A stretch of DNA of 34,666 nt, taken from the NCBI GenBank assembly GCA_002256025.1, contig NKIB01000176.1:1-34666 (forward strand). The letters run 5' to 3'. The first letter of the stretch is position 1; each line of letters opens with the position of its first letter. Under the pieces are notes generated by a model, which was not told where the DNA came from, did no database searches, and saw nothing but the letters and a program-made list of their open reading frames with translations. The position numbers and the translations under genes are program-made. Source of the stretch: Asterionella formosa (taxonomy: Eukaryota). This document shows positions 3,960-34,506 of this stretch, one piece after another.

Positions 3960-4420
3960 ATGTACCGGTACCCTGGTACCAGCACCCTAGTATTATACAT
4001 ATCGACACTGGTATATACTCTGCCTGGTAGCTAAATATGATGCAAAAATGAACGGATAACAATAAAATTTAAGACACCCCTCACATAATGGGTACGTGCT
4101 CTCACGTGGTACTCCAACCTGGTATGTTCCAGCACCACTGGTACCGGTATGTAAGTACATCACACCATTCTGATAGTACCAGGTACCAGGTACATAGAAT
4201 GCATAATCAATGACACCTTTTATGATTAGCCTTCTTCACATACCGGTACGTCTGTGCACACTTCTTCTTACGCAACCACATACCGGTACTTACTTATATG
4301 ACAACAAGAAACTGTCTGCCCCAAATCAGTACCAGGTACCAGGTACTGTACCTGGTACGCATAGTTATCATCAGACTGGTACTGGTACTGGTACTGGTAC
4401 CAGGGTACTTAGTCCTCTAC
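3960..4420. repeat. Cluster of TACC(W)GGTA / GGTACC palindromic short repeats upstream of eIF4G
   Basis: GTACCGGTAC 3962, TACCAGGTACCAGGTAC ~4177, TACCGGTA 4241 and 4281, TACCAGGTACCAGGTACTGTACCTGGTA 4330-4357, (ACTGGT)4 4375-4398. Confidence 0.9.
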
Positions 4421-5094
4421 ATACTAGGAGTTTGTATCATTTCAGCATTCTCAAGACAGTACATTCCTCCCAACCTTCATATATACGGTATTATGTATGT
4501 ACGAGTACAAATAATACCCACAATGACCCAAATACAGGTTGAAGGATGACCACCAAAAAAGCTAAAATTCACAAATACACCTGACTGACCTGCCAGTAGG
4601 ATATATGGATTGGACAATGATTCCAAGATTGGAAAAACACCATCAGATCAAATAAAGCAATCATGTTGTGCTGATGAGGCAGAGCTGCATATGGGCTGCA
4701 TGTCTGCTGATGTGGCCCTGCAGATCAGTTTCACACAAAAACAAAAAAAACTGCTGCCTACTTTTTGGAAAATAGTAATTGCAGTTATTAATGCCTGAAT
4801 CAAAAAGAACTCAACACCACCAGAGTGTTGATGCTGCCTGGCTTTTCTAAATATAGTTGCTCAAATAGCTAGTACATATCAATTCTACTTCGAGGTGATC
4901 AGCTTCCATGTGACTTTATATAGTAGTAGCAAAACTTTTAGTTACCTGTTCATCAGATGAAACGTGGCATCATGGTTGGCAGTCCTTCTTGTTGTACCTC
5001 ATTGGAGCATTGGAGAGTGTAATACAATTCTTGGGATTAAAAGCAAAAAGTTGTTTCCTACTATGATTTAGAGGGGAAGATGATCAAGATGAAT

Positions 5095-6262
5095 GTCTAC
5101 CGGTAGTCTGCTTCTTCTAAAATAAGCGTATGCATATGCAATAGAATTCCAGTATACCGGTATATGTTTGCTACCTTGCACATGCCACATCTAAGCAAAG
5201 AACATCTACGTACATCATCTCTCGCTACCAGGTACCAGGTACTGTACCTGGTAGCGAGTAGTTACCCGTACTGCTCGTTGATGAGATCATCGACGAAGTT
5301 CGAGGAATGTCCTATACCGGTTCATATATTTATGTTACTATTAGCAAACAAGGATGTCTCTCGAATTTCCACGTACAACCGGTTGTCTATACAAATACCG
5401 GTAGTAATGAATATGCATGATATACCGGCAGAACAATCAATGATCGCAGAACAAATGAATATTTGCTTTACCAGTGGTCACATCGTATTTCACGTGGAAT
5501 GAGCATTGCGAGCGTCAGGCAGACGTGCCAGATACCAGGATACCTGGTGCTACATACTGACTCTGGTAACTGGTAATTAACTAGGAGGTACACCTACCGG
5601 TATTTTTAGATGATGATGCTAATGATGATGTACTCTGAGTACAATCATAAACAATGACTATTAAAAGTGAATACCGGTACCTGGTAACTGGTACCTTCTG
5701 TAGCCCCTCCTATGAAGATGTGTTTGTTATGTAGCAACCTGGTACCTGGTAGTGCGCGCGATGCATGCGTGATGCATTGGCAGCCAAGGAAAAACCGCAA
5801 TCATTACTTTTCTTGTCGTATCATGTCGTGGGAGTACCGGTAGTACAGTACATATTCCTAAATGGATTATCATGAAATAAACATGTACGTCTATGTACTC
5901 GCTGCATACCGGAACTGGTACCTGGTATCCTCATGTCAGTTTGTACGCTGGAGTACCAGGTACTGGTACCTGTTGCTCAGTATGATGCATTTTTCCTCTA
6001 CTACCGGTAGTATCATGGTCCGTTGTTTTCACTGGCGATGATGAGGAGGCAGGACCTGATGGCACTACATTATGTACCAGGGTACCAATAAACCTGTTGG
6101 GTGTATGGTACGCACGACGACTTGTGTGATGCATCATCACAGCAAAATAGGTGTACATAACAGCATGACTTCACAGAGCAGGTTTCTTCGCTGTATTGTA
6201 ATTATACAGTACCTGGCACTCTGTGGGGGAGTAGTCTACCAGGTACAAGGTGTACCTGGTTT
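5095..6262. repeat. Cluster of TACC(W)GGTA / GGTACC palindromic short repeats upstream of the riboflavin gene
   Basis: More than 15 copies. They include TATACCGGTATA ~5153, the same 28-mer as at 4330 (5226-5253), ATACCGGTACCTGGTAACTGGTACC ~5671 and TACTACCGGTAGTA 5999-6012. Confidence 0.9.
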
Positions 6263-6577
6263 GCATACTAGACGTAACTTTTATAGAGTTACCATGAATC
6301 ATATGTTATATTTTTGCTCATCCCTTTCATTTGTAGTTTCGTCGTTCCATGTTGGTTGGGTTTCACCTTCTGACATTCAATCTCTGATTATACAACCTCC
6401 TCTCTCTCCTTCGTCTCTTCCACTGATCACTGCATCAACCAAACGCCAAGAGCAACGCAATAAATAGCAGCAAGGACAAACGGAAACGGAAACTCAATCA
6501 CAAAAGCAAAAGCAAACCACTTGAGGGTCACTTCCATCGCGTTCCTCTCTCCCACAACCCTTCCTCCGACGTCCATA

Positions 6578-8440
6578 ATGCCAGAAGTACTATACAAACA
6601 ACGGATGCGAATGGACTTTCGTTCAATACTAGTCGTTTGGTCCTTGGTCTCCTTCTTTGCCTTTAAATCAGAAGCGCTTGCAACGTCGTTTGTCCCGCGC
6701 TCCCTCCGAGGCGGATCCACATTGCGACCGGCCGCCAGCTTGTTACAATCACCCACCAATAGCAACACTGGAGAATGGGACATTTCCAACGGAAGCATCA
6801 TTCATGACCAAACGGTCGATGCGGAGTTCGTGGCGGAAACCAATTTGCCAACAGATCTGGGACCCTGTCGCCTTCGAGCTTATCGCATCCCGCAATCCGA
6901 CAATGAGTTTGTTGGGAACGAGCCCTGTGTCATTTATGCTGCCGACAAGCCACCCTTTGGTAAGGATGGAAGCTTCGCAGAGGGTGTGCCAGTTCGTGTT
7001 CATGATCAATGTCTGACCAGTGAAGTCTTTGGATCGCAAAGGTACGCAAAACGGTTTTACAAGTCCTCGTTCACTCAATCCATGACACACTCACTCAAAT
7101 ATCTTCTCGATAGATGCGACTGCAAAGAGCAACTGAAAATGTCCTTGGCATACATTCAAGCCAACGGAGGAGCCATTATTTACTTGCAGCAGGAAGGACG
7201 CGGAATTGGACTCGCCAACAAGGTGGCAGCCTATGCCCTTCAGGATGTTGGGATGGATACGGTGGATGCCAATGTGCATTTGGGATTTGCTGAAGATTGT
7301 CGACAATACGGAGCCATTCCATCCATTTTGCAAGATATGAAGATTCAGAGTATTAAGTTGTTGACGAACAATCCAAGAAAAGTCAATCGTCTGACTGCCT
7401 TGGGGGTCAACGTTGTACAAACCTTGCCCATGGTAGTAAAACAGGCTAATCCATTCAATCGACGATACCTAGAAACAAAAGTATCAAGAATGAATCACAC
7501 CAACTTTGGTGCCATGTTGTTGGAACAGGATCAAATTATGACGTTTCCATTTAGAAAAACAGGGGCATCAGCCTTGAATGAGGCTGTCGCCCCGTCGAAT
7601 GGCGTCATGCTACCCAAACGACATGAGCAGCAGTCGCTATCCGAAAACGCTCCGCAAGAATCGGATGGGGTTACTGCGTCCAAGGATGGATACTGCTTTG
7701 GACGAGAATCTGTCGAAGCCGCCATTGCCGCAATCGCACAAGGAAAATTAGTTGTTGTTGTAGATGATATGGACCGAGAAAATGAGGGAGATTTTATCAT
7801 GGCAGCAGATTTATGTACACCAGAAGCAATGGCAACTATTGTCCGCTATTCGAGCGGTGTGGTGTGCATTGCCATGGAAGGACAACGGATGGATGAATTA
7901 AAATTGCCACCCATGGTGTCCCTCAACGAAGATCCAAAAGGAACTGCCTTTAGTGTCACCGTGGATGCTGTGAAGGAGAAAGGTGCGTTGGAAGGAATGG
8001 AGGTTTCTTGACAATGAAGGAACGAAAACGTATTTTCATTGAATGCTCTTTGTATCTATCCTACAAGACTACACTCACGTGTTTCCATTCAATATATAGG
8101 CATCACCACCGGAATTAGTGCTACAGATCGTTCCATTACCATTCGGACGTTGGCAAGCACCTTGACCGTTCCAACAGACTTGGCTCGACCAGGACATATT
8201 TTCCCATTGCGGGCAAAAGAGGGTGGTGTTTTGGAACGCGATGGACATACCGAAGCTTCGGTAGATTTGGCACGGTTGGCGGGTCGGCATCCATCAGGTG
8301 TGTTGTGTGAAATCGTGTCAGAAGATCATCCAACCGAAATGGCGAGACTTCCAGAGCTACGACGCTTTTGTCAAACACACGGGTATGTCTTGACAAGTAT
8401 TGTAGATTTGCAACAGTACAGACGAGATACAGAAAGTTGA
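6578..8440 (+). CDS. ribA/ribB: Plastid-targeted bifunctional GTP cyclohydrolase II / 3,4-dihydroxy-2-butanone-4-phosphate synthase (RibA domain first, RibB second); exons 6578(or 6605/6611)-7041, 7114-7982, 8100-8440
   Basis: GCHII motifs [45 protein letters not shown] and YLETK. DHBPS motifs [49 protein letters not shown] and LCEIV. Both introns are GT-AG (7042-7113, 7983-8099). A signal peptide is followed by ATS-FVP (ASAFAP-like). The start Met is uncertain. Confidence 0.95.
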
Positions 8441-9104
8441 ACCCATGCTGGCGATTACCAAAAAGAGCAAGGAGAAATATAGAACAAACAAACACGTTGA
8501 AAATTAATAGTATGTTATAAACGCTTCAAAATGCGTTTTTGGAGGGTTGCAGCATGTATGATATTGTGTGAATATGGTAAAGGCCTCCAACAAGGCAACG
8601 TTGAATTATGGTGCCAACCGCCACACAATGTATATATTTTTCTCACTAACAAATATCCACTTAATCATATATAATAGGGTCGCCCCGAAACTATCTTCCT
8701 ATTATCTAGAGTGTTGACAAACTTGACTCATTTGTATGGCTGATTACATATATTATCATGTTTTTATTTTGTTTTTTCCTCGGGAGATTTACATGTAGCA
8801 ATACCAAAAAGGCAACCAGCAAGGAGTACGTGTTTAGGACTGTTATTTTGAACTTAGCTGGCACATTTTTTGCAATTGTCAAATGTTCTATTTATAGTAT
8901 TCTGGTAGTTGTTTATTCATAAAGATACAGAGAACGCATCGAATTTAAATGATTAAGTGAATCGAATGTAATTTAACGAGACTTTCTCAATTAACTGTAC
9001 CCATTTATAGTCTACAAATAATTCATCTTAAAATTTTGTATGATCCAGGGCTACTTGACCTCAGTGACTTATGTCCATTGCAATGGGGTTGGCATAAAAA
9101 TATT

Positions 9105-12100
9105 TTATTTCAGAATATCTTGGAGCTCGGCTTCACTGAATCCACCATCTATACCTCCCGCACAAATATCGTGCTTCTTCTTCGCATCGTTAATCGAGTC
9201 TTCGAGCTGGTCCTCTTGCCGCTCGACCCTAATGTTTTCAATTTTAATTTCAATGGTGCCTTTAATTAAGTACCGATGCACATATGTTTTGTTAGTCTGT
9301 CCAATTCTGTTCACTCTTGCTATGGCTTGGGAATCAAGGCCACAGTTTAGAAGGGGCTCAATCATGAAGACATGGGTTGCTTCAACAAGCGTCAAACCTT
9401 CTGCACCATTCTTCACATTCAGCAGGAGAACAGAACATTCGTTGCTACGAAAACGTTTAATAGTGTCGCCGAGGCGTGACATGCTCTTGACACGGACGTA
9501 GCAAACGCCATTGGCCGCCATTGCATGTTCAACCACGTCAAGCATGTCCTCCCACTGCGAAAATACAATACTCTTGTCCCCTTGGTCAGTAACATCCATC
9601 AGATCTCCAAGAAGCCTTGTGACCTTTGTGCCCCAACTTCCTTCAACACTTCGCGTCCCCTTGGAGCCATCGTCCTTTCTTTTATCCGTGGCAATCATAA
9701 CTTCATCTCGCCTTGTTCTCTTGCTGCAGCGGAGAGGACATGAGATTGCACTGTGACCTGGAAATTGCGCCATCAATTTCTCCATGCAGGGGGATTGGTG
9801 AAAGAAATGTCCACATGCCAAGACAGCCCGCTCACCATGAAACGTGGAGAGACAAACAATACAGGTATTTTCATTGTCGTCGTCTTTCTTTCCGCTTTTC
9901 TTTCTTTCTTCTTCAGCTTTCCGGTCCATACTTTGATTGCGTAAATAGCGTAATGTCTGTGTATTCCGTCGTAAAGTGCCCAATGCCATTGCTTGTTTCG
10001 TGGCATGATCCATATGACGACTGGCTATATCCCACGGGGCGACAATGGCATTCAGCTCGTCATCGGTTAGTTTTGTAAGATCTTCGTCTTCTTGAGCCAA
10101 TCTCATGCTTCGTTTGCACTGATTCAATTCATCGATATCACTTAAAAGATCAAAATGAGTTGTCCAAACCTTTAGAGCCTTCTGGAGCTCGGTTTCATTG
10201 GCTTTTACAAGCTCAAAGAACTTGGCTGCTCGCTCATGTAATCTCACTTCCTTTATGGCAGAGCTCATTTTACCAGAGAACTTTGTATCCTTTAGCCATT
10301 TCCATAGTGTCTTGATAATGCACATGATTAAATGATCGGGCGGGAGCTTTCTCAAACTTGTTTCTAGGTTGCAATGCCGACAAGTAGGTCCAGTTTGATT
10401 CCAGTCTTCTCGACATTTACCACAACGACTGTTTTCGTAGATTTCCACTTCACTTGGTTGAGCTGATAACACTAGCACATCCTTCATTGCATTACTATGT
10501 GTATTGCCATCAAGGGTAGACAAGTAATCCATGAGACGAAAATTAAGCCCAGTACGAAGACCGTCAACATCCTGAAAGTTCGGAAATCCCTTGTAACGTT
10601 GCTGGTCAATCGGCCGAGAACGGAATTTTTGTCCTTCCACTGTATCAGTCACGAAGTCATCTAGCGCTACAGTCACCATATCACAAAGCCTCTCACGGTC
10701 ATGCAGGTCACCATGAATAAAACAGATAGCCAAAAGATCGTCCCACCAGAGATCTTGCCAAAGATCGGAAATTTCATGGTCTCGTATTCGATTGCTGAGG
10801 ACGAAGAATTCTTTCTCATATTTGTTTCGTTCACTGCTGTGATGCTGTAAATCTCGTTGACTCTCCAAGTGCGGTGCTCTGGCGGCATCCATATATAAAG
10901 ATTCAATTCGACGACTTTCTGAATGCATGCTCATCATCTTTTCTTCCATTTCTGCACTTGAAAGCTTCAAGCTCGAACAGCCCACGCCTAGCTGCTGCAG
11001 CGCCGACATAGAGAGTGACAGATTGTGAAGTACATGAAGACATTGCAAGCTATCCGACGCAACATCGGCTTCGAGCATTTGGATTTCCATGGCGACAACA
11101 AAAGTAACCATATCATCGGGGGTCACATGAAAGGAATTATTGTCGTCTAATGCAAAGTCATTGAGAAGCAATCGCCAACCTTTGGACTTATTGGTTCGAA
11201 AACCTCCCCGTGATAGCCACTCATCGCTAGTCGCTTTAGATGCCATATCAAAATCGACAACATCAACAAATTCGCCGCCAAGAGAAGAATGAGAAACCTG
11301 GAAGACGGCTGTTTTCGGGCTCAAAAGTTTACAATCCGAGCCAAGTTCCTCTTCAAATTCAGAAGGAATTGTCGATAGTGTCTTGAGGCGGGCTTCGGTG
11401 ATCTTCTTTGAAGGTCCCTCAAAGTCAAACCGAGCCCAGAGGTCACGTGTTTTCCTGTACTCGTCGCCTTGCATTTTGATCTTCCACATTAGAATGGCTT
11501 TTCCGTCACGCACAACTTTTCTCTGCGACAGGAATCCTAGGCATCCAGTAACAGCAGCTTCACCAACGAGCATAGTCGGCTTTGCATTTGTCTCTGAAAT
11601 TTCAAGTGACTCCATGTACGAGCTACAACTTTGTGCCAACAAAGATACATCGCTGTCAATGAAGTTGACGTAACCGCGAAACTTTGCTTCCACCTTGAGT
11701 CTAGACAATGAAGCCAATGCATTTGTATGCAGGATAGCTATACGTTGAGATTCCTCGCATTGCACCTTGGCGTCATCGATCAATCTGTCAAGAATCTGAT
11801 CCATTGTCAATACCCCGGTGCCAATACTAACCCCGCCATCGCCGTTGTTGCCCGCAGCGATTTTTCGCTTCTTACTAACTCTTCCAATGCCACTCGATCC
11901 CACTTGAGGATGACAACAAGCAGCGCGAAGTCTATGCAGATGGGCGGCTAGCAAATCGGTTTTTCCATTCCGCTTGGCTCGTCGACTCGCTTTCCCTACA
12001 ACCTCACTTGCTGCAACCATCGTCTTTTCCAGTTGTCGTTCGTAAAAGTGCTTTTCAATCGATGAGAAATTCAGCAACACTTTTTTCTCGATTTGCTCGG

Positions 12101-14807: not shown

Positions 14808-15316
14808 GTTCCGGTACCAGGTACCATGTACCGGTAATCAAAGACACAGTACGGTACTCTTCCTTTTGGTCTTTTTTTCAATAGTGAGGATTGAACCCCC
14901 TTCAAACAACAATCAGGAAGCTCCTTTCAAACCGCCTTCTTCTCAAACCCCCTCAGAAAGTTCTTATGATAAAATTGTATACAATATTGCAGGCTGTGCT
15001 AGAACAAGGCATGATGTCTTCTTCCTTCACTCTCATGAGAATGGAATCACCTTCCAATTACTACTCCACCAACTCTTCGACATCATCAACTTGGCATTGC
15101 CACTCATGGCAACCAAAATCACATCATTTGCAGAAGGTGCAATTCTCATGTCCCTCCACATTTCACTGGACCTTCCAGGTGTACCTTGACTTATACTGGA
15201 TTATAAATTGAAATGAAAAACTAGCATGAGTGTTAGATACCGGTATTTAAATACAGGGCTAAAAAGGATGTGCTATGTATGCTTATAAAAACAAACACAC
15301 TCAACATACCGGTGTT
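14808..15316. repeat. TACC(W)GGTA motifs in the divergent SHPRH / ERG24 intergenic region
   Basis: CCGGTACCAGGTACCATGTACCGGTA 14811-14836, ATACCGGTAT ~15237 and ATACCGGT ~15306 flank a C-rich, CpG-poor segment (~14890-15200). Confidence 0.75.
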
Positions 15317-19510: not shown

Positions 19511-21499
19511 GTAATATTATACGGTAGTCTGTAAGGTGAGTTAATTCGATCACTATAACGGCACGAGGAAATGTGTTCATAATTTCTCTGACCCAGGATC
19601 AGATTTCTTCCCCGGCTCTGCGTATAATAATTTGCGATTTGCAAAGGAGGTATTAGTGTCCTATATGCATCGTTACTGTGCACTACATAGCCTGAAACAG
19701 AGGTGCGAGACCAGGAACTGTGACTCGGAAGAACGGAGTCCCTTTCTGGGCACGTGGTCGACTATGACATAGCACTTGAACGTTTAAGTCCCTCGATCTT
19801 TTCCGTCACATCCTAAGCAAATCATGATTTTAAGACTGTCCGAAGGCGAGTGCTACGACAAAAGGATTTATACGGTTGAAATGGTTCTACAAACAACCTA
19901 GGAAATGGCTTCATAAATGATCGGCTAAGTAACATGTACCGTAGTGATTGCCAAAATTCAGGCTCGGGTTAATCGTCCTTTGTCGGTTGTGGTTGCCTGC
20001 TGGGTGGTTTCATTTAGTCACGTGCGTAATAGGGACCTGTGAAATAGATGTTGATATGGCGTTACCCCGTTGCTGCTTGCATCGAAATTACCAGTATTCA
20101 TGTTTTTCTTTAGAGGATCTCCACTGCATCGACCAAGTACCAAAAGCCAATTGCAGTTGAAAATATCAATACACGTCACATGGGCGGTCGAGAAATTCTT
20201 TATCAATGGTCGAAATTTTCATATTTTTCCCACCGAATCGACCAAATCCTATATTGGCCTAATCTCGCGCCTAAATTTTTAGCCAATAGAAATAGAGCTA
20301 GTGTGTAGTTACGTGTGCGCATTTACTTACACATTGCCAGGTCCGTCTTTTCCAAAATATTTTTATGATTTACCTCACTCCACACATTAGCTACGTGCAA
20401 CTAAATCAAAGAGTTATACGAGGTAAAATGAGCTTTCACCAATACAACTTTTGCATATGCTTGCTTGGATACAGTCACTGCTCAACTTCTTAGGTGAATA
20501 CTCTATATTCAGATATGGTAAGGACCTCATATCTGGAGAGAAACTACAGTTATGAATCTACATAACTATTGCAAAAATAGTCAAAAAAGGGGCAACAAAG
20601 AAGCTTCAAAAATCTCCTGGTGATGTTATAGGGTACATGGCTATCTATTTTAATCTTGTTCATGAAACCCTGCAGATGTACTAGAGCGATCCTCCTCCCA
20701 AAAGTCGACCTGATCAGCTTTTTCAACATGTTGCCAAAATATTGGAATCAGAATTTGTCCATGATGATGCAAAAACGTTCTCGTAGACTTAGAGTCTTGT
20801 GTAGGTATGTTTTGCTGCATAATTATCTATCCGAAAAGACTCCATGGCAAGTTCCCATGTCACAACACCAATTCTGGTTGGTTGAATTGAATTTACTCAT
20901 CTGCTCCAGATTTGCTGAGTCTCATAATTTTGTAAAATCAAGCAAGCCACACCTGAACCACAAGTATTTGATGTGCAGTGTACCATTAAGTAAAATCAGT
21001 AGCACTGGTATCAGTAGTTTTCCCATCATCATGAATCATGAACCAAGATTACATACTATTTACTGTTTTTTGGTACATACATGCCTGTGGGCATAGAGAA
21101 ATAGTAAAACTACATTAAGAAATGTAGACTCTGTATAAACGTATAAATATCATTTGAACAAGATCCATGATTTTACATACCGACATGCTACTAATTTATG
21201 CATGTGTTTTGGCGTGGAGTCATATCATGTCCACATACACAAACGAAGATATTCAATAAAAATGTGTTCATATCATTTTTGTGTGTTTGAAATGGAACTC
21301 TATCAATCTGGCGCCAAATACTATTCAATTTAAATATTCAAGAAAACACTCAAACGATGGGAATTCACAACAACGAACTCCCTGTTAAACGCCAATTTTA
21401 CAACCCTAGCGATGTTTTACACCAAACTGGGGTTAAGCCGGGGCCGCAACCTGAATTCATGAAGCAGCTGCATACATACCTAATTCTTACAAAGCTAGC

Positions 21500-22409
21500 A
21501 ATACGCCTATCTGGAATTGCTCATCAAAAAATTATTACGACTAAGTACTTGAATATTGGTCATAGAGAATTGCGGCTTCATACACTTTTGTAACGCAATA
21601 ATCAATAGGTATGGGAAAGAGCATCTTTGAGCTCCGACCAACAAGGACCTTGAGATGATTCTACGTTTGCATTGAAGGAAAGGTTTGGGCAGGGCTTCTT
21701 GGTACATTGGACGTCATGCATTGGGAGTGGAAAAACTGTCCGAAGAGCACACAGAGGAGCATTTCAAGGAAAAGAAGGAGTGGCAAATATTGCTTTGGAA
21801 GCTGCGGTTGATTGTAGACTTTGGTTCTGGCATGCATGGTTTGGAATGCCAGGTGCAAACAATGATCTTACTATTTGGATCGTTCTCCGTTTTTCCATGA
21901 TTTGTCAGATTGAAGGACTCCAAAAGTAATCTTTGCCATCAACAACCAACAACACAATCCGGTGTATTATTCTGTTGATGAAATCTACCCAAATTGGCTT
22001 ATAATTGTTTAGACAATTTCAGAGCTACAAGGTCTGAAGCGGAGTTATTTTTCGATGTGTCAGGAGGCACAGCGCAAGGACGTCGAGCGAGCATTTGGGG
22101 TTTCCACAGGCCAGGTGGAGGATCCTTGCACTTCCCTATAAACTTTGGTCAGTGGGCGCTATGAACAGTGTAATCATTGCATGCATCATTTTGCACAACA
22201 TGATCATAGATTTTGGGTGGGAAACTGAAAAAAATGACTACCTATTTGACCATATTCAGGATGGATTTTGGGTTGACAACAATCATGACAATGTCCGTAC
22301 ATTTCTTGATTTCAAGAATTTTAGAATGAACTAAATGAGCAAATGTGAACACTTTTGATTGTGTAATAATTTGATTGAGCACTTTTGGATTCAAAACGAG
22401 GACAAATAA
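21500..22409 (+). pseudogene. Harbinger DDE transposase pseudogene (plant-transposon-protein type)
   Basis: Frameshifted pieces KYLNIG, FCNAIINRYGKEHL*APT, GLLGTLDVMHWEWKNCP, IALEAAVDCRLWFWHAWFGMPGANND, VDEIYPNW, QEAQRKDVERAFG, QARWRIL, ACIILHNMII and NNLIEHFW, with several stops and indels. Confidence 0.9.
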
Positions 22410-22499
22410 TAGATGATAATTTGGATCAAGATTAATTTAGTTTAAAATACAAGTTCTCGATTGACAATAATAAAATTGATAGTGTAATGATGTAATGTC

Positions 22500-23310
22500 A
22501 GTAAAAAACTCTAGTTTCATACTCTCTTTGTCCAGTCTCTAGAATCGAAACCTCATCAACAGTAGATGGTGAACGAAAAGTTGAAATATCGACTTCAACT
22601 GAACTGCCTGATTCCAAAGAACTGATCTTACTTTTTTGCAAAATTGTTTTGAACTATTCTCGATCTCCTCCAAAGCTTCTTGAACCTTCAAAACAAACCA
22701 CCTATTGGCTTCCTCTGAATTACTAGTAATAGAAAATCTTGCAAGAAATTCATCACGTTGCATCTTCACCTTTCTTTCCAACATCTGCACAATGTTTTTG
22801 TTCAATGGCAAGCTGAGCATTTGCAAGTAGCTTGCTGTTTTTCACTGTTTTTATCCCCATGGGATGCACCTCTAGTAACAACTCAGGACCCTTTGTTGTG
22901 ATTTGCTGCTGATCTTAAATGTATTCACACCAACCCTTCCATTTTAGGACTTCCTTCATAATTTGCCAACACCCTTGTAACATAAAATCTCTACCTAGTT
23001 TCCTTTATTTTCCCTCTAATAAAAAGAGCTCAGTACTAGCTTCTTCAAGCTAGTTGTCGTCTGTTGGAAGTAACCTGTGAATAGAGGCCGCAAAACTTCA
23101 TCATGTTGTGATTGATGGTTCCCCATCAGGCAGTGCGTGCGATTGAGGTGCAATCCTTCCCATTCGGGATGAGCTCAACATAAATCTCAAGCACCCCACT
23201 CCAAAACTTGCTTGCTTTGTGACCAGTACCGTTGATTGTGTCTTCACTTACTGCTACCCAGGCCCAGGAGACTGCCTTGTCCTCTTCCACATGAAACCAG
23301 AACCCCCCAT
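22500..23310 (-). pseudogene. Harbinger-associated Myb/SANT-like (NAM-associated type) DNA-binding protein pseudogene
   Basis: The minus-strand frame reads FHVEEDKAVSWAWVAVSEDTINGTGHKASKFWSGV...*WGTINHNMMKFCGLYSQV...GCWQIMKEVLKW, matching the ED..L..AW...D...G.....FW...RW..I....KF and CW..L....KW pattern. It has internal stops. Confidence 0.82.
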
Positions 23311-23938
23311 CCTGATGATTATTTTTATTTTATGATGTTGACTCAATACATATATACACCAAGATGACATTGGCCTATAGCTAGAGTTCTACATGAAGAG
23401 ACTATAGTGAGCAGATGTACTGTAATTTTGTACGCAATAATTAAACCATAAACATTAGGGTGCTGGAGCAAGCCACAATTTCAACCAATAGAACTGCTTC
23501 TTTTATGTGGCTTTGATCGAGTCTAATCAACCAAATACCTGATATTTGGTTGAAAAGGGGGTCACCCTCAACCAAGACCAAAGCATATTTGACTTTGGAC
23601 AATGCAGTGGCTAAAATATTTTTGCTGTTCCCTCTAACATGAGGCATCATGACCTGCAACTTCAACTGGCTTGGTATTTGCTTGATGTGTTGAAAATGAT
23701 TTTATATATTATCTTGCATATAATATGCACTTGAACTATACATGAAGCATGTATGGGGTACATTGTACATCTATTGCTTTTAATTTATTAATAAGCAAGT
23801 CACATAAAAGTATTTCAGCAAAAAATATAGACAAAAAATGAGCTGTCAAGTCCTCTGGTTCTGCAATAAAGGAATTGTCCAAGATTGTTGAAAATAACAA
23901 ACAGAGGAAACCATGTTAATTTGAAAAAAATATTGACA

Positions 23939-25255: not shown

Positions 25256-25416
25256 CGAATGAATATCTCTGGAAATGTTTCTTTTTGCGATGAATGGAAG
25301 GGATATGAAAGCTCGTTTGAATGGGCTTAGAGTATTATGTAGTTGCAACAGTCATCCAATTTTACCATTTTTGTGGAAAGGAAGTGATCGAAATTGCTGA
25401 TGTTCTCAGTTGTGTG

Positions 25417-25490
25417 TCGTACCTGGTACCCTGGTACTAGCACTACACTTACTATAATACCGGCATCATTATGTATGCGTACCGGCATGT
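25417..25490. repeat. TACC(W)GGTA cluster upstream of the NTT-like gene
   Basis: GTACCTGGTACCCTGGTAC 25419-25438 plus two TACCGGCAT variants. Confidence 0.75.
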
Positions 25491-25626
25491 AATAGAAAGA
25501 GGAAGAACTGATGATCTCATACGAGGATGATAGGAACATGCTGTCAGGAACAAATCGATCGGATGACTCGCGTCGTTTAGTCGGAAAATGCAACCGGGTG
25601 CTTTTGTAAAGGTAATGTCTGAGTAT

Positions 25627-25656
25627 GTATGGCGTAGTATGGCGTAGTATGGCGTA
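25627..25656. repeat. 10-bp tandem repeat (GTATGGCGTA)x3
   Basis: Directly visible, at the left edge of the Copia gag relic. Confidence 0.9.
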
Positions 25657-25719
25657 CAATATCAGTTTCTTCCTCCCCTCATCCTCACACTTGATATTGC
25701 GGCCCTCTTCAGCAGTTCC

Positions 25720-26025
25720 TCTAGCTGACTCCCCACCAGTACATTGCACTAGTGGTAGTGGCGCTAACGGTTTCCTTGGCATCGTCATGGCCACTGCTCC
25801 TTATTTACTTTGCGCTGGCGAACCATTTCTACTGCCTGCTAGAGCATCGATCCATGGAACCCAGCCCACTCACAGTGCCACCGCCACACAGTCACAAATC
25901 ACTGCGGCAAAATGCTACTAGTGCAACACTTCCCTTGATGTTTCTCGCCGCTATTCTCAAGTCCATGAATCCCTCTGTCAACAGCCCAATCATACTCAAT
26001 CCTTACCAGTTGGCTGCCTCATGGT
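25720..26025 (+). mobile_element. Relic of a Ty1/Copia (diatom CoDi-like) gag N-terminus
   Basis: The frame VHCTSGSGANGFLGIVMATAPYLLCAGEPFLLP...HGTQPTHSATATQSQITAAKCY*..SLDVSRRYSQVHESLCQQ resembles the GGG.HGHLGLV....Y......F..P..PG..P.H...AT..QI..ANR pattern I recognise from diatom Copia gag. It is CpG-decayed with a stop, and no LTR was found. Confidence 0.6.
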
Positions 26026-26871
26026 AGACTACAGGTATATGTGTATACATATGCATATAGAGGTAGGTATACTGGTAGTCAACAAAGTTAAGTAATGTGC
26101 TTGTATTAGCCTAATTCCTTCTGTACATAGTCGATAAAAGTCTAAATTGCTGATATGATGACAAAAACTGCAAATTAATCTTACCTAAAAGGCCTCTACC
26201 ACCATTATTGAGGATCTCAATGTTGTATCATTCCAGCTTTTCCTGTTGGTGCAACAAACGTTATATGATTTGATGAAAGGTTTGTTAATAGTGAGGCAGC
26301 CAGCTGAAAAGCTGGAATGGGGATGCTTGTTTTAATAAGGGTTGACCCCATGTTGGAAGCATTTTTTGCGTTTTGAATGTTTTTTTATGAACTCAGATGG
26401 TCAAAACTCCTGGCGCAGCCATGATTTCCACTTTGTACCATAACAAGGTACACTCTACACCAAAAAACATGGTACATTCTTGCTTATAGACTAACTTTGT
26501 CAACTTTGTGCATGAGGATGGCCAAATCTCCTTTCTATGTATGTTCGGCATTCTCTGGTTGATTCATACATTTCTTGACATATGTTGTAGATGATGAGGA
26601 GGAGACACTTGTAACATGTTGGTTTAATTTTGAAGGATGGCAAATGAGCGATATATGCAAAAAAATTGAATTTTAGAATTTTACATTGACAATGAGCATT
26701 TCTTTTAAGCCGAGTGGTGCACGATGTACACAGTTGTGTTAATTTGGTGCATCAGAATCATATGGCCAAATTCCTTTACATATATCATCCTAGTCATTTC
26801 CCACTTTTCCAACAACACAACATTGAACTTTCCGGGATACTTGCCTTCTATTAATTATAGTACTCTGGTAC

Positions 26872-27397
26872 ACGACCTACACCCGTTCCCACGGCGCTGC
26901 TGCTGCTTACTTCACCCTTGAACATGGTGCTTTCCGCCCATGCTGCTCCTCTCACTCCTGCTCCTCCTGATATTCCTATGGCTGAATATGTCTCCTTTAC
27001 ACTACTCCTGCTCATCCCCCATGCAAATCCTACAAGTCTACATTTGCTACTTCGGTCGAAACCGGAAAGCTCCGCTTGGGTTCATAATGCCATTGAAATG
27101 CAATCTCTTTTACCCAATCTCGCCCCTCTGACCCTCCAACCACCACTCTTGACCCCCTTCACACATGCACACTTGCAGCTTTGGTCCAAAACAACATCTA
27201 CTCCAAATGACATCTCTGCAAACTCCCTTGAAACTAATACTTCTACAAAGAAGCTCACTGTTATACATTGTCTTCAACCAACCCAAAGCAATAGCAGCAC
27301 TACTCACAGCCCTCAACACCATTCTGCCCAGATTTCATCCTGGCAATCGCCTGCCAGGATTAACAATTCAAATTTAAATTCACCGAAATCGCAATAA
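26872..27397 (+). pseudogene. C-rich, CpG-decayed coding relic, probably retroelement-derived
   Basis: Strong C bias and TpG/CpA excess. One frame is open for 159 codons (26918-27397). The frame starting at 26872 has 11 Cys codons and 5 TGA in ~163 codons, as expected from Arg CGN deamination. The family was not recognised. Confidence 0.4.
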
Positions 27398-29967
27398 AGT
27401 ACGGCACACTATATGCATTTGCACTATTTGTAAAATGAAGTTTTATGTCGCAATGAATTATCCTCTAAACTAAAATCTATCTTGAACTTTTAAAGTAATT
27501 AGTTGTGATATAAAATATTTCCGCCTTCTTGAGCTCACTTTATGCTTGTCAAACATCACATGAAAACCAGGAAGAGTAATCTTTTTGAAATAGAATAGTG
27601 CAAATTATGTACGTGATGTGCAAAACAGTAAATTGTTGATTATCCATGCATGAAAATAGACACCACAAATATCGTTATTAATTCGTAAATGAAGGTGCGT
27701 GTTGTAAATGAATTATCCACGAGAGCAGGATGTTAGTTGAAATTTGAAATGAATTATTTAAATCATGGGGAGCGATCTAATTGAGTCTAGCTATCAAAAA
27801 GTTCATCGTGAATGCTTCACATGAAATCATTAAAACTTCATGTGAAACCATTAAAAGAAACCTTATTTACTACGTGATTGGCATTAATTCATGTGAAGTA
27901 ACACATAATTTACACTCCTACATGGATAAAATTTCGAAAAGTGGCGTATTTCGAGACATAGAAGCAACATCCTCCAAGTGGAGTTGATAGGAGCACTTCC
28001 CTGGACTATTTGTACCTGCGCATGAAACAAGCAAGTTGTCTAATACTGTTAGCTATTAGCTAGATGGGGAAGCTTGAGAAATTATTATTGGCATAAAAAT
28101 CAGGAAAGCCGCAGCACGCATGATGCTTCTAACTTGCCACCAATCTTACATTTTTGAACACCAATATTCCAGACTTTGTTCAATTTTCCAAAATCGAGTT
28201 CGCAGTAGTAGAAAGAAATTCACCTAGAACTTAGTAATTTATTAACTTTTTGTTTTGTTCCCACCCACCACTAATGCGAAATGCCGATGGTACACAAATT
28301 GTCTCAGTTGCTCAGCACAATGCCACCACATGCGATCTGATCAACAAAATCAGCCATTGAACAGGAACTTTTGATCACACAGAAAAGACATAAATCGATT
28401 TGATTGTTGAGTGTGCTCTTGATCATTCGACACACAACATGCCACATGGAGTATATATAGGAGATTTTCTCGTGTTCAAATCATCGAGATTGACAAAAAT
28501 GACGAAGAATGCCAAATTGAATACAAGAAGCTCCGTATAGTGAGTTGGAACTTCTTCTTCAAGACTCACCCTCATGCAGGAACAGTACTTACATTTACTA
28601 GCCTCTGTAACTGCCATTCATTTGTAATTTCTGTTCCATTTGATTAAATTATCGTGAAATTGGTATTATTTTTGGTGGATGATAGATTGCGACTACAATG
28701 CATAGACTTGCTTAGCTGGTGGTCGTGTTGGATGCAATCCATGTTCTGGGGTCGCATAACGACACAATTTTAGAATCTCAGCCAGCCCTAGGATGAGGGG
28801 CAGTTTTTGAGGAAATTAGCTATACAATACATAGAAAATATACTCGGAAAGTTCAGGCAAACAGCTGTGTGTATTTTGATGCATCATGGCTATCATCTAT
28901 TTCAATATACACATGCTTGGTGCGAAGCCTCATGATGCAGTTGAATTCATTGATGAGGATTTTGTTCAGTAATTGTACTACTAAGAAAGTGTATAGCAAT
29001 TTGTGAAATTTATTCAGAAAAATTACAGGATTAGTGCTAACTTGTAATGTTTGAGGGAATGCGATCAATGACTTGCCAAGACTCCTGTAGCTGTTGCCCC
29101 CTGCACTCCTCATGTTTCCGATTGATCTCGTTACCAAATCTGACCACCATATGTAGTAAGTACTAGGTTTCTTAAAAGAGAAAACAGCAAAAAGCCAGTC
29201 CTTTGTAGCAGGATCATTGAAACAGAATGAAAGCATTTTGGGCTTTTGCGTTTCTTCACTTGACATTGAATAGATATAAATGTTTTGATTTTTTTTGTTG
29301 ATCCTATGTCCCCCAAAATGTAGTAGAATCTCGTTCATTTTCCCCTTTTTTCACGCTTAAGTTATGCCTATTAAAAAATGTCTAGAATACGGTATATCAT
29401 TTCATTAAATCGCTTGTTGTTATTAGTTCTTATTCCAAATATTAATGCAAGCCTCCTTATTAGCCAACACCTTTTAACTATAAAAATAGTACTCCTCACT
29501 ACTATTCATGCCATTATGAACTACCGGTATATACTATAATTATGGATTAGGACCAGGTCATATATTGAACTATACCTTTTTTCCGTTTCTGTTGCAGCTA
29601 TAAATGGGCTGCATTGGCAATGCTAACATATTCAGTATTCGTATGTTAATTAAATTTTTATAGTATTACGCAGCTACAGCTATTCAATTCTCATACGCAT
29701 CCATTAAATATTCAATTTTTATCGCCTTAAAACTACTCTATTGGGGATAGGGCAGCTCGTGTGGCACTTCCCGGCGTGAACAGCCTGGGTTTCGAAAATA
29801 CTAACCCATCTGATATCAGCATAACTCATGTATTGATTTCTGGCGCTTTGGATGGTGGTTTTGGTAACACACTGTCGACCGCCCTGTCAAGGTGTGAGTG
29901 AGTCATAGTGGGTTACTGATGGTGGTAGTCAACATGTATGCATATCTGGGGTAAGGAATCAGCACTT

Positions 29968-30495
29968 CATGGTACCTGGGTACCACATCGGCAGCAGCTC
30001 CTCGCTCAAAGAAGACGAGCGAGCCGAATGACGACAGCACATTTTCTCGTCATACGCTTTCCTATTCCCGGTACCAGGGTAGCTGGTACCACAAGTAGTC
30101 TACTGGAATTATATTGATAGAGACAACGAGTGCCTTGTCACCATTCATTATTTGCATTTTACGACTCACAGAGTCAACTGACCAACATCGTACTACTGTA
30201 TAGTCTCACACGTCTTGAATTTGTCCTCTACCGGTACCTGGTATCGGTACTTCCGATTATAAACCAGTATACCCGGTTGGAGTGTGTATGCTTCTTATGC
30301 TGCTACCAGGTACTACCGGTAGGACTGGATGAAACTACAGGTAGGTTAGCACACAGTCTACTGGTATGTATGTACATGTTTTTATTTATATGGACACTGC
30401 TTTGTCGTCTGATCAATAATGATACCTGGTACCGGTATACGGTATAGATGAAGTGCTACGACCTGTACGAGGTATACCAGGCACAAGGTACCTCG
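29968..30495. repeat. TACC(W)GGTA / GGTACC cluster upstream of the thioesterase
   Basis: GGTACCTGGGTACC 29971, CGGTACCAGGGTAGCTGGTACC 30069, TACCGGTACCTGGTA 30229, TACCAGGTACTACCGGTA 30305, TACCTGGTACCGGTA 30423. Confidence 0.88.
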
Positions 30496-30653
30496 AACTC
30501 CGGCACTCACAAAACTCAGAAATGGTTCCGGGAGTGATATCAACTGCTTTGTTTGCTTGTCATTGTCTCCGAATCCCGTTCTTCTCGTCTTTACTCCTTA
30601 TGCAAATTAAAAATCGAGGTGCATTTGGTATCACAACTCCCCCGCTTGCTTTG

Positions 30654-31292
30654 ATGAAACGCACACACCCTTCCACTAGCCGATTCGATACAATGCCACC
30701 TCAATCGCATGCTGACACAGCAACGTCGCCATCAGGCGTCGATGACGACAAGAATAACAACAAGCCCACGTGGATCTCGCAATACCAATCGACATGGGGA
30801 GATCGAGTGATTCTTCCAGAATGGGAACATCAGAGTGATCATAGAGATACCAATGGATGGCAAGGGCGTGATTTGATTCATGATATCGATGCTCCAGTTC
30901 GCATTTTGGACTACTACGTCACGTTCAAGGATGGTGGAGTTGGGACGACTCTGACAGGAGTAGTCCATTACACCCCTCGAGCTGAATCCCACGCTGGATA
31001 TTGTCATGGAGGAAGTATGTGTTCGGTCATGGACGATGTCATTGGGTGGTGTGGATTTATGGTCACAGGAGTGTGCCTCCCATGGTCGGGCTTTACTGTA
31101 CAAGTGAATACAAGTCTGCAGAAACCAATCCTTGTTGGAAGCTTCCTTGTTGTGGTAGGGACAATCAGCAAGGTGGATCGACGAAAGGTGTCGATTCAAG
31201 CGAAACTCGTTGATATGAGCGGGGAGGAAGAGGTGGTACATGCGACGTGTGAAGGCCTTGTTATTATCAATAAAGGAATCCTACCAGAATGA
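30654..31292 (+). CDS. Hotdog-fold acyl-CoA thioesterase (PaaI/THEM4-like)
   Basis: AESHAGYCHGGSMCSVMDD (HGG...D signature), FTVQVNTSLQKPI, VDRRKVSIQAKL and HATCEGLVI. The start is uncertain (ATG 30600, 30654 or 30693). The track's extension to 30453 translates the TACC repeats and is likely spurious. Confidence 0.85.
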   Translation: MKRTHPSTSRFDTMPPQSHADTATSPSGVDDDKNNNKPTWISQYQSTWGDRVILPEWEHQSDHRDTNGWQGRDLIHDIDAPVRILDYYVTFKDGGVGTTLTGVVHYTPRAESHAGYCHGGSMCSVMDDVIGWCGFMVTGVCLPWSGFTVQVNTSLQKPILVGSFLVVVGTISKVDRRKVSIQAKLVDMSGEEEVVHATCEGLVIINKGILPE

Positions 31293-31435
31293 TGTACCGA
31301 GTGAAATGACAGGAGAGTCGTTCCATTGCCCAAATATTGCAAAGAGGATATAATGTACATACATACTCAAAGCATGGCTACTCGTCACTTTCGTAATGTG
31401 ACGTATTGTTGCACTTTCACAGTTTCTAGTTTGTT

Positions 31436-32284
31436 TTAATCCCGATTCGCTTCCAGAGCCAACATCGGAACTGGAAAGAGCTCGTCAGGAAAATTCGTCT
31501 GCCTCTCTTGGTACACTACTCGTAAACCAGCTTTTTCAATAAGCTTGAGCCAATAGGGGAGCGATCGTGTCACGGAGGCATCGTCCTTGTCCAAAACAAA
31601 GGTCTCGCCCTCGCACGTGTTTTCTTTCAGGACAATGACCCCATACTCCGTCAATGCACTTTTACATCGCGTTAAGAATGCCACAATGTCCTCATCCACA
31701 AGATAGCACAGCACCCACTGAATCCAAATGATGGAATATGTGTTTTCTTTCGGCGTCCATTCTTGCAAGCCTCGACAATAGAACCGACACCGACTTGACA
31801 ACTCGTCGCCAATGTAGATTGGTGCTTCCGCCAAAAGTTTTTCTGACGATTCGATCAAATCACATTGTGAAACACCCAGTGGTAATAACAGTCCCTTACT
31901 AACTCGTCCAATTCCAGCTCCACATTCACATGCCACAACAGCAGCAGCATCATTTGTGGCTTGCAGTAGTTTAGGCCTAATGGTGTGTTGCAAGGTGGAT
32001 ACAAATTCTCTGGAAAAGTCCAAATCGCAAGTGGAAATGTGTGAAAACCCACCCAACACTCCATCTACAGTGGCATCACAATGATCTTCATAGTACGTTG
32101 CAGCTCGTTCGTACCAATTGGTATTTAAGTCACCAGCCACAACACCTTCCGATTCCCACATTTGTTCGATGGAGCTGTATTTCTGGCCGTAACTGTCACT
32201 GCCGATTGCGCCACTACTTGTAGCGTTGTTGTTATCGTTCTCAAGTTCTGTAGCACCAGGCATGGTCATGGTTGTTGAATGCAT
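31436..32284 (-). CDS. NTM1: Alpha-N-terminal protein methyltransferase 1 (NTM1/NTMT1/Tae1 family)
   Basis: WYERAATYY, ATVDGVLGGF, CECGAGIGRVSKGLL, IIWIQWVLCYLVD, IVLKEN, DDASVTRS and FPDELFPVPMLAL. The start is ATG 32284, 32269 or 32263. Confidence 0.93.
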   Translation of the reverse strand: MHSTTMTMPGATELENDNNNATSSGAIGSDSYGQKYSSIEQMWESEGVVAGDLNTNWYERAATYYEDHCDATVDGVLGGFSHISTCDLDFSREFVSTLQHTIRPKLLQATNDAAAVVACECGAGIGRVSKGLLLPLGVSQCDLIESSEKLLAEAPIYIGDELSSRCRFYCRGLQEWTPKENTYSIIWIQWVLCYLVDEDIVAFLTRCKSALTEYGVIVLKENTCEGETFVLDKDDASVTRSLPYWLKLIEKAGLRVVYQERQTNFPDELFPVPMLALEANRD

Positions 32285-32334
32285 AAAATGGTTGTCGTAG
32301 TTTTGGATGTCACAGTGTAGGAGGTGATGAGTGG

Positions 32335-32395
32335 GATACCTCCGGTACCTGATACCTGGGACCTGGTACCACCAGGTAGTTTGGTCTGGTATCGT
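32335..32395. repeat. TACC(W)GGTA cluster just upstream of NTM1
   Basis: ATACCTCCGGTACCTGATACCTGGGACCTGGTACCACCAGGTAG, 50-110 bp 5' of the ATG. Confidence 0.8.
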
Positions 32396-32788
32396 GAATA
32401 GCAAGTACCTCTACAGAGACAGTGAAATCGTCGTAATGACAGACACTAGCAAAATGATCTGGCTGGCCATATACCGTACCGATGATGGTAAGGGGCAGGT
32501 TGCGGTAAATGAGAAAGTTAGCTTTGTTTTCCTCATAGTAAGAACCGTCTGTTACCCCTGCTCCCAATGAAAAATTTTGCAAAGAAACAAAAAAATAGGT
32601 TGCTTGCTTGGCTGCAAATGTTGGCTGGACTCTAGGAATCATCAAAACGTATTTATTCTTTAACAAACAATATATTTGATAGCCAAGGAAAGGATTGTCG
32701 CCGTTTTGTCCATTTGCAACTAGATAAAGTAGCCACACACTTCGAGATCACTAGTTTGGATGAATGAATTATTATGCTCAAGCAATAC

Positions 32789-33370
32789 TTATAGGCTAGA
32801 CGTTTGTTCGCCTTCATATTGAATAGGGATTGTCACAGCTTCATCTGCCACCTTTACAAAAGTTGTCATGGCATTCACAGTATCTTTGTACAAGGCATAA
32901 AGCTTTCCCTCTGGAAGCTTCTTTCCTCGAACCGCAACAGCGGCTGTCGAATCCAGTTGTTCCAATGCCCGGATAAATGTTTGATATGTGCTCGTCATGA
33001 GTTTCGCGTCCGGACCGTCTTCTGCTCCACGCACCAATGTAAAGGCAGCCTTACGAACTTCTGAAAAGGGGGCAACTCGAATGGCAGCACGTAAACCTTC
33101 CGCATCGCCCGTACTGGCGTACAGTTCCATAGTATCCAGTTGCTTCGAGGCCCTTTTGACATTGCGAAGAGAGGCGGACGAAGCAACTTTGCTGGTAATG
33201 TCGGCATTGGCAACGAGAGGAGAAACAACGAATGCTCCAGCAATACCAAAGGCTGCAGAAGAAAAGGCTTGTCTTCGGGATATACTTGAATGTGTTGAAA
33301 GGGCTGATATAGTCTCGCAAGCCAAAAAGGTGGCAATGGCGATTGAGAGGAGAGTCGTTGCTTTCGTCAT
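32789..33370 (-). CDS. Thylakoid-lumen-targeted helical protein, PsbQ-like, 193 aa
   Basis: Signal peptide MTKATTLLSIAIATFLACETISA, short transit peptide, twin-arginine SRRQAF, hydrophobic core and ANA cleavage site. The ~135-aa mature part is Ala/Lys-rich and helical, consistent with a PsbQ-type four-helix bundle (the family assignment is inferred). Confidence 0.7.
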   Translation of the reverse strand: MTKATTLLSIAIATFLACETISALSTHSSISRRQAFSSAAFGIAGAFVVSPLVANADITSKVASSASLRNVKRASKQLDTMELYASTGDAEGLRAAIRVAPFSEVRKAAFTLVRGAEDGPDAKLMTSTYQTFIRALEQLDSTAAVAVRGKKLPEGKLYALYKDTVNAMTTFVKVADEAVTIPIQYEGEQTSSL

Positions 33371-33887
33371 TCTGATATTCAGGATTTATAATCTATGACG
33401 AATGGAAGAATTATAGACGACAAGTGTAATGACTCTTTTAATGATCCGGTCTGACTCCGATCTGACTAATATCTGACTCCGTGTGAAAAGGAGCTCAACC
33501 AAAGTGTTAAAAGGTGATTGGTAGAGGACAAGGAATTTCGTTGATGTGGCAGCTGATTGAGTGGCCTGCATATACATATAGCAATAGCTAGTGCCATCAT
33601 GAGCTGGTTGTGGTATCCATTGGTGTCGTTTGTTTGAATATATCATAAACCGGTATAGCAGGTACTAAGTAAACAACGCCGAACTAGACATACCGGTATG
33701 TTATTGTCGTTTTGTCAAGCGTCATCACCCCATCGCATCAGTGAGCGAGCCACGAATACAGCATGCATACCGGTAACGGTACCTGGTACACGAATACATA
33801 TTGCTTACTGCTATTATACACTGCCCCTGGTACGGGTATACAGGTTGCGTACATAGAGCTCGCTCAACATGTAGGTACCCTGGTACT

Positions 33888-33977
33888 GCAAGTTGCGGTA
33901 ATTTTGCTTAAACTAACAATTTAATATGGGATAAAGAAAGCTAAACTTTTAGCTTCAGCAAAATTACCGCAACTTGC
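33888..33977. mobile_element. 90-bp MITE-like element, copy 1, perfect 21-bp terminal inverted repeats
   Basis: GCAAGTTGCGGTAATTTTGCT (33888-33908) and its exact reverse complement AGCAAAATTACCGCAACTTGC (33957-33977). The flanks are TGGTACT and TGGTACC. Confidence 0.75.
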
Positions 33978-34062
33978 TGGTACCAGGTACTATGATGAAT
34001 CATGGATATAGCCAACAAGCAACTTGGTTGATGTTATTTACAAACGGTAGGTACTGGCATGT

Positions 34063-34152
34063 GCAAGTTGCGGTCATTTTGCTTAAATAAGCATTTTAAT
34101 ATCGGATAAAGATAGCTAAAGTTTTCGTTTCAGCACCATCACCGCTACTTGC
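34063..34152. mobile_element. 90-bp MITE-like element, copy 2 (diverged)
   Basis: Same length and orientation as copy 1, 76/90 identical by manual ungapped alignment, with degenerate TIRs. Confidence 0.72.
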
Positions 34153-34506
34153 TTGTACATGATTAGGATCATCATACGTTTATACATATATGAGGAAGAA
34201 TATACCCTGATCCTAAACATCGCTCATGGTGTTTGTTGCCTACCGGAATGTAGTCCCGAAATGCGTCACATGGTACCTGGTACCAAAGTAGCACCACATC
34301 GGCGGGCGCTGGTGATTGAATCACATCATCATTATTATTAGCATACATAGCTCTAATTTACAGAATACACGTAATATATTTTATATGTTGCATCCATCAC
34401 ACGATCATCGTCAGGAGATTGATCACACAGTATAGAGACTCAGTGATTACCCTATTTCACACATCTCTTTCTCCCTTGTCGCACTTTGTACGAAACAAGA
34501 ACAGCA

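Follow-up and report, generated by a model that had tools for sequence, protein, structure and literature searches.

TA-bounded promoter palindromes of the diatom Asterionella formosa as probable transposon excision footprints

The window analysed here is a 34,666-nucleotide stretch of the genome of the diatom Asterionella formosa, contig C176 (NKIB01000176.1) of assembly G000 (GCA_002256025.1; 68.4 Mb in 15,436 contigs). The named relatives of one window protein come from diatoms, and the labelled sequencing runs with the best match are algae or freshwater metagenomes, in keeping with a freshwater diatom. Its genes include, by Pfam family, eIF4G-like, ribBA, SHPRH-like, ERG24, CRAL-TRIO, TLC transporter, thioesterase and N-terminal methyltransferase genes, and most gene starts are preceded by short palindromes bounded by TA dinucleotides, some of them joined into chains. 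Each such word arises when bases are inserted at a TA, which is thereby duplicated. The words are probably footprints left by the excision of TA-targeting cut-and-paste transposons and have accumulated in open promoter DNA; we refer to them as scars.

Strict sites in the window comprise TACCGGTA, TACCWGGTA and TACCAGGGTA/TACCCTGGTA. The family is real: 46 strict sites are present, compared with a mean of 0.34 and a maximum of 2 in 200 dinucleotide shuffles, and the seven clusters named in an initial annotation of the window hold 45 of them (11, 16, 3, 2, 7, 0 and 6 in order), leaving a single site at position 29522. Mixed chains with 11 strict TA-CC..GG-TA units lie upstream of the eIF4G-like gene on the minus strand (3963–4407), with a short slippage tract, (ACTGGT)x4, at 4375–4400. 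The cluster upstream of the ribBA-like gene (5098–6260) has 16 strict units, and three occupy the divergent gap between the SHPRH-like and ERG24-like genes (14811–15312). Two precede the TLC transporter gene (25420–25487); the scars of the thioesterase-like gene (29522–30495) comprise seven strict sites in 29968–30495 and the one at 29522; and six lie in the last divergent gap (33650–34284). The chain upstream of the N-terminal methyltransferase gene (32342–32380) is decayed, with 0 strict units remaining. The four convergent 3′ gaps contain no strict site, as had been described, and neither do the transposable-element relics at 4500–5090, 19511–23938 and 26000–29400. The annotation had placed the palindromes upstream of nine of ten gene starts; eight have a strict site within 1 kb, and the ninth (NTM1), with decayed units only, requires relaxed matching. 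The CRAL-TRIO gene is indeed the exception.

The genome as a whole bears out the enrichment. TACCGGTA occurs 28,528 times, compared with 1,718 for its reversed control, and TACCWGGTA 26,886 times (control, 902), together approximately 55,400 copies; GTACCWGGTACC is found 13,098 times in the forward orientation (control, 39/24). Positions were compared in 16 other contigs (574,391 bases; genes taken as open reading frames (ORFs) of at least 250 amino acids), in which site density is 0.91 per kb, close to the genome-wide 0.81 per kb. Density reaches 3.3–4.1 sites per kb at 100–600 bp before the ATG, compared with 0.09 per kb in ORFs and approximately 0.5 per kb in convergent gaps. Within tandem gaps, the 5′ half holds 138 sites and the 3′ half 66 (P = 5e-7), and sites occur in the 1 kb upstream of 83 of 109 genes. 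Since the CpG-free 7-bp word is also biased (1.75 per kb upstream versus 0.10 downstream), the pattern is not merely one of CpG survival. The initial annotation had named a distribution without 5′ bias as the sign of a neutral microsatellite; the bias is real.

Non-ORF DNA cut at every TA yields five standout words, 7- to 52-fold above a Markov model: CCGG (270), CCAGG/CCTGG (233), CCAG/CTGG (156), CCAGGG/CCCTGG (41) and CCCGG/CCGGG (23). Few words in non-coding DNA are over-represented to a greater degree. Chains consist of these units with TAs in common, and 471 of 577 are single units. Adjacent CCWGG units have like orientation in 28 of 50 pairs (P = 0.48), and neighbours are identical in 38 of 146 cases, compared with 20% expected at random. 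Slippage would copy units, so randomly oriented and mostly unlike neighbours assign it a minor role. Pure runs do vary in length, as in the (ACTGGT)x4 tract and in two copies of an 88-bp miniature inverted-repeat transposable element (MITE), described below, that carry five and three CCTGG-TA units, a real case of slippage. First units, however, arise at TA without an adjacent template, and a neutral slippage microsatellite, to which we give next to no chance, is refuted as the origin by such de novo insertions; slippage is a minor modifier. An identical 28-base mixed chain, including a TA-CTG-TA unit, is present at 4330–4357 and 5226–5253, 900 bp apart; whole chains may also be moved by local copying or gene conversion.

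The insertions are seen directly between paralogous repeats, where 484 insertions of at least 4 bp include TA to TA-CCGG-TA, TA-CCAG-TA and TA-CCGGG-TA, as well as 12–13-bp double units, in flanks without a template. An alignable paralogue with both flanks was available for 55 of 635 chains. In 12 of these the paralogue has an empty site of 2 bp, which reads TA in ten; three differ in chain length, 28 have the site in common (in several cases the same site of a single PIF family, counted repeatedly) and 12 are ambiguous. None of the 55 falls in the class expected of stepwise substitution, with equal length and more than two mismatches.

The same change is found among wild populations, compared by aligning four runs from four studies to window positions 3000–8500. 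Three of the 12 indels displayed (of 34) are of the scar type, each confined to one run, and all fall within the ribBA-upstream cluster: TACCG after 5658, TACCGG after 5671 and, next to a TACCAGG unit, TACCGG after 6236. The TA at 5659–5660 is bare in the window and in runs X6 and X8, and reads TA-CCG-TA in run X2. At 6237–6245, the window has TACCAGGTA, in front of which run X8 has a different unit (TA-CCGG) added, with no tandem duplication. Both comparisons show the words entering as insertions at a TA that ends up on either side, as in Tc1/mariner-type excision footprints.

Once written, scars decay at every position. One-mismatch variants exceed expectation throughout, with transitions above transversions and CpG fastest; their sums are 1.35 and 0.78 times the numbers of intact sites. 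The view that the palindromes keep their CpG was thus only partly right: TACTGGTA/TACCAGTA is the commonest variant, 143 above expectation compared with 270 intact, and the ratio of intact to decayed sites is 155:56 upstream versus 28:23 in distant repeats (P = 0.016). In the ribBA-upstream cluster, substitutions within units segregate among the wild populations at 5101, 5322, 5836 and 6007 (40 of 128 substitution rows displayed). The sites decay like neutral DNA, with no sign of purifying selection on sequence and position.

These observations bear on two explanations raised in the initial annotation. One is a promoter or boundary element under selection and recognised by a dimeric factor, the explanation put forward for oomycete TACCGGTA and TACATGTA. 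It would suit the palindromic form, the strong 5′ bias in 83 of 109 genes and the reports of TACCGGTA in oomycete promoters in the available parts of three papers (PMC3597505, PMC3520976, PMC10031896), as well as the existence of another inserted word, TA-GC-TA, that has no 5′ bias in the sampled contigs. However, the element arises by insertion, in transposon copies as elsewhere, its spacer (0–2 bp), count and position vary, and the substitutions described above segregate within sites that decay at all positions. We regard this explanation as very unlikely. Scars may later be used by a factor as cis-elements, a question separate from their origin.

The second is a DNA-methylation address, or a word like HIP1 produced by methyltransferase-guided repair at CCGG, CCWGG or GTAC. 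These cores equal known methyltransferase sites, which counts in its favour, and HIP1-type models build the word by substitution. Here 6–7 bases appear at once, unlike stepwise substitution; bare CCGG, CCWGG and GTAC are common in ORFs, from which the TA-bounded forms alone are excluded; and CpG decays fastest. The weaker CpG decay upstream fits unmethylated promoters rather than a methylation address. Cyanobacterial HIP1 offers an earlier example of a hyper-abundant palindrome, 8 bp long and containing methyltransferase sites (PMC4390886, PMC5861425); in the text available it is tied to methyltransferases, whereas insertion of the diatom word duplicates the target, its length is variable and ORFs almost lack it. 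The chance of a methylation origin appears very slim, and the likeness to methyltransferase sites looks coincidental.

Candidate writers were sought among the DNA transposons of the assembly, which has 93 matches to DDE_1 (pogo-type) transposases; a DDE_3 search passed 0 of 16 candidates. Two young pogo-type copies (L136, L137; contigs C3388 and C14579) are 99.95% identical over 1,955 bp, both end exactly at TA|CCGTAAAACC, and an open DDE_1 frame of 367 amino acids (PF03184, E = 1e-22) is present. Nine DDE_1 matches of this family have equal score and open-frame length, and it is a candidate active diatom transposon. An older pogo-type family ends in TA|CCGTATACTTC. Together, the two families account for 415 exact ends of CCGTA type, pairs of which bracket DDE_1 matches on C2689, C1812 and C1171, and empty paralogues of CCGTA-ended elements have a single TA. 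The CCGTA family thus has the features of pogo-type elements: a DDE_1 transposase between terminal inverted repeats, and a TA duplication. We take its tips to resemble the end of C. elegans Tc2, although no confirming paper was found. The diatom families differ from the Tc2-like elements in being young and multi-copy. A second inverted-repeat group, with 164 ends, terminates in TA|CCAG or TA|CCAC; CCAG-ended copies of 3.4–3.5 kb are present on C780 and C6474.

The two groups differ in target context, and the scars differ in the same way. A G precedes the TA in 16 of 17 CCA(G/C) ends, giving a GTAC context (three further ends lacked TA), and in 5 of 13 CCGTA ends (15 matches without TA were excluded as probable chance matches). 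Among units outside chains, the preceding base is G in 75% of CCAGG and 79% of CCAGGG, compared with 27% of CCGG, 30% of CCAG and 17% of CCGGG and a background of 26%. Scar flanks therefore carry the target preference of the matching element family, an agreement that is not expected under a binding-site model or under a methylation model. All five top words can be composed as prefix and suffix joins of CCG and CCAG/CCAC tips, although words this short may fit by chance. Within 100 bp of a scar lie 4 of 10 CCA(G/C) ends and 8 of 16 CCGTA ends, compared with a background of 14%. Insertion at bare TA, the two-family flank signature and decay at all positions are unpredicted by a binding site or a methylation address, and neither is likely to be the origin of the words; of the three proposals in the initial annotation, the local repeat-writing process stands, probably in the form of TA-targeting DNA transposons that leave TA-(end bases)-TA.

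In the mechanism we propose, an element would insert at TA and duplicate it, as the single-TA empty paralogues of CCGTA-ended elements indicate. Staggered excision, established for Tc1/mariner elements and presumed here, would leave a few terminal bases on each flank, which end-joining would seal. The overhang lengths are inferred from work on Sleeping Beauty and Osmar5. Pogo-type CCG tips would yield CCGG by pairing through CG, CC(G/C)GG by overlap of one base and CCG/CGG by overlap of three, and all three products are enriched. CCAG tips at a GTAC target would, judging from sequence fit and the flank match, yield CC(A/T)GG by overlap of three bases with a central mismatch and CCAGGG/CCCTGG by overlap of two. 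Each scar would leave a new TA, often within GTAC, so that later rounds could build mixed chains with TAs in common; since one GTAC becomes two when a scar forms in it, this feedback would explain chains and clusters, with slippage occasionally adding or removing units. The 5′ bias would arise because elements insert preferentially where promoter DNA is open and lightly methylated, and because scars may persist longer there; ordinary point mutation would then decay the scars. A rough balance (3.7 sites per kb x 8.5 bp) requires words to be written at approximately 3% of the rate of substitution, which agrees with two scar insertions beside 23 substitutions in one contig of run X2.

Several observations weigh against the footprint interpretation. 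Genes were defined by ORF and not by transcription start site, the 16 contigs were chosen through motif match lists, and the population comparison draws on the displayed share of the variants. For the CCAG family, the frame-broken fragments examined gave no Pfam match to a transposase, and a search with one fragment found no homologue among 601 candidates; the target duplication of the family is compatible with either TA or GTAC. Surviving elements are not biased towards promoters (the 1 kb upstream of genes holds 2 of 10 CCA(G/C) ends and 5 of 16 CCGTA ends, compared with a background of 27%), so excision footprints would need selection against whole elements near genes. Intact scars (approximately 55,000) outnumber exact element ends (some hundreds) about a hundredfold, which would need long, fast turnover. 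Two joins that the model allows, CCATGG and CCAGTGG, are both absent (0 each). No site with an element in one copy and a scar in another was found in the small sample of element ends examined, for which the paralogues found had a bare TA only. A frame effect in coding sequence, by contrast, counts in favour. A raw in-ORF excess (15 versus 0.77 expected) falls, with codons 1–50 dropped and a codon-aware control, to seven versus 1.6 for the in-frame 6-bp TACCGGTA (1 of 200 resamples), the frameshifting 7-bp word being found once versus 0.4 expected. The frame effect is a weak point, because the sole case checked against orthologues, an in-frame SRAP site, is not an insertion: its orthologues are of equal or greater length, and two close ones also have TG.

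Some of these points would suit a writer that requires no transposon: repair of a TA break would add C and G, either end-templated or without a template, as by a terminal-transferase-like activity or abortive integration. Such a process would explain why the words are inserted, why scars greatly outnumber elements and why element-versus-scar allele pairs are lacking among the ends examined. It leaves unexplained why the 7-bp, CCAG-like word has a GTAC bias and the 6-bp, CCG-like word has none, and why the list of words is narrow and matches the tips of resident elements, and we consider it improbable. Excision of TA-targeting transposons is, in our assessment, the probable origin.

Footprints of this kind are known. 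Insertion of Tc1/mariner elements duplicates TA, and once an element has been excised and the ends joined, a footprint remains between the TAs (PMC2874221), 2–4 bp in length (PMC7913693). As far as the available text of these papers goes, the footprints of Sleeping Beauty, ZB and Tc1 are like the diatom scars in having a few terminal bases between duplicated TAs, with a central A/T ambiguity in Sleeping Beauty, and some members, such as ZB, prefer open chromatin and start sites (PMC7913693). The diatom scars differ in number (approximately 55,000 intact copies), in being chained and in their presence on most gene 5′ flanks, and are deduced from genomes alone. Natural Stowaway footprints in Triticeae introns likewise retain 1–4 terminal bases within TA duplications, with re-insertion beside earlier footprints (PMC1925063); the portion of that report available concerns one locus and other element families, in contrast to the genome-wide pattern here. 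The phenomenon is a known by-product at unusual scale. What is added here is the split of scar flanks between two families, the pogo-type writer of CCG, the TA-CCG-TA polymorphism, the orientation test and the CWG-duplicating MITE.

A further parallel comes from oomycetes, another stramenopile lineage, in which the identical 8-letter word TACCGGTA (M94; motif-9) is abundant upstream of genes. In the available text of the publications, on which the comparison was based, both TACCGGTA and TACATGTA are taken as candidate transcription-factor sites (PMC3597505, PMC3520976, PMC10031896), unlike the diatom reading, and Seidl et al. considered and dismissed a footprint origin for TACATGTA (PMC3520976). 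A literature search that mostly did not cover subscription journals and excluded supplements found no account of this motif from diatoms, nor any of footprints forming a promoter word throughout a genome. Hitherto, footprints have been known as rare by-products at single loci; here they number approximately 55,000 and mark about three-quarters of gene 5′ flanks, and any motif finder would call such words a core promoter element. If the footprint interpretation holds, counts of surviving copies badly underestimate DNA-transposon activity, footprints genuinely contribute small insertions to promoters and perhaps to proteins, similar published stramenopile promoter motifs need to be re-tested, and the density of scars is a sequence-based map of chromatin that has long been accessible. 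More tentatively, transposon turnover could be a main author of promoter sequence in this lineage: two transposase families would write 6–7-bp palindromes into open promoter DNA, at a few per cent of the rate of point mutation, each scar seeding the next, a third, CWG-targeting element would land on them, the scars would perhaps be recruited as chromatin or factor-binding signals, and oomycete TACCGGTA and TACATGTA would have arisen by the same process. This broader proposal is possible but doubtful; if true, the spectra of TA-bounded words would be a fossil record of transposon tips and of germline-accessible chromatin.

The 88-bp MITE lies at 33889–33976 in the window, with terminal inverted repeats and a CTG duplication (33886–33888 and 33977–33979) inside a TA-CTG-GTA site, and a second, decayed copy is found at 34064–34151. 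Its end has 1,424 genome-wide matches, corresponding to approximately 700 copies by end count. An exact 3-bp duplication is present in 10 of 28 full copies, always CAG or CTG, and three of these ten lie in a perfect TAC-CWG-GTA. Of 20 MITE ends, 12 are within 1 kb upstream of a gene (background 27%) and nine within 100 bp of a scar (14%). The MITE targets scars or scar look-alikes and lands among them without writing them, and it gains new scars at its own internal TAs. It was also considered as a writer and rejected: the CCA/CCT asymmetry at its ends is not tied to orientation and, since W is independent of the orientation of the element, derives from the CWG target duplication. Longer elements (L094, L095, L101 and L103) have the same end. 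CWG duplication defines the NuwaI group of PHIS transposons, which the available text reports only from animals and whose ends usually start with GGG (PMC4482050). The diatom MITE has this duplication in common with NuwaI; its ends, however, start with CAAG, and no two-ORF autonomous partner or transposase could be linked to it. Because the ends differ, it is not filed as a member.

The CRAL-TRIO upstream region (19511–20110) is the sole unique 5′ flank of the window without a scar, strict or decayed, and a PIF/Harbinger relic begins 600 bp upstream. The relic (20112–23620, plus strand, bounds approximate) has a PF04827 match at 21674–22105, weak inverted arms at 20121–20136 and 23595–23610, and no scars inside. 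Its family has young, near-identical copies elsewhere (L122–L129 and L131), and an internal TACCGGTA at one common site is present in some PIF copies and absent from others. PF04827 elements (151 matches) were rejected as writers, being ordinary PIF/Harbinger elements with TWA duplications. No CCGG-ended family was found among the recurrent TA-CC ends in the DNA examined. A 1.9-kb 'CCAA-ended element' on C4673 was likewise set aside, as it resembles an inverted gene duplication and not a transposon: two divergent inverted copies of a short gene lie at C4673:125113–127041, the gene resembling methionine sulfoxide reductase A, as judged from its translation. Further TA-bounded insertions recur among paralogues (TA-GC-TA, TA-CTAG-TA, TA-GAC-TA and TA-GGC-TA; for example C34:26320, C4673:44052 and C989:2630), and one TA-GC-TA lies within a terminus of a pogo copy (C2706:6253). 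At C67:283–5945, a long nested inverted repeat with many matching arms spans approximately 5.6 kb.

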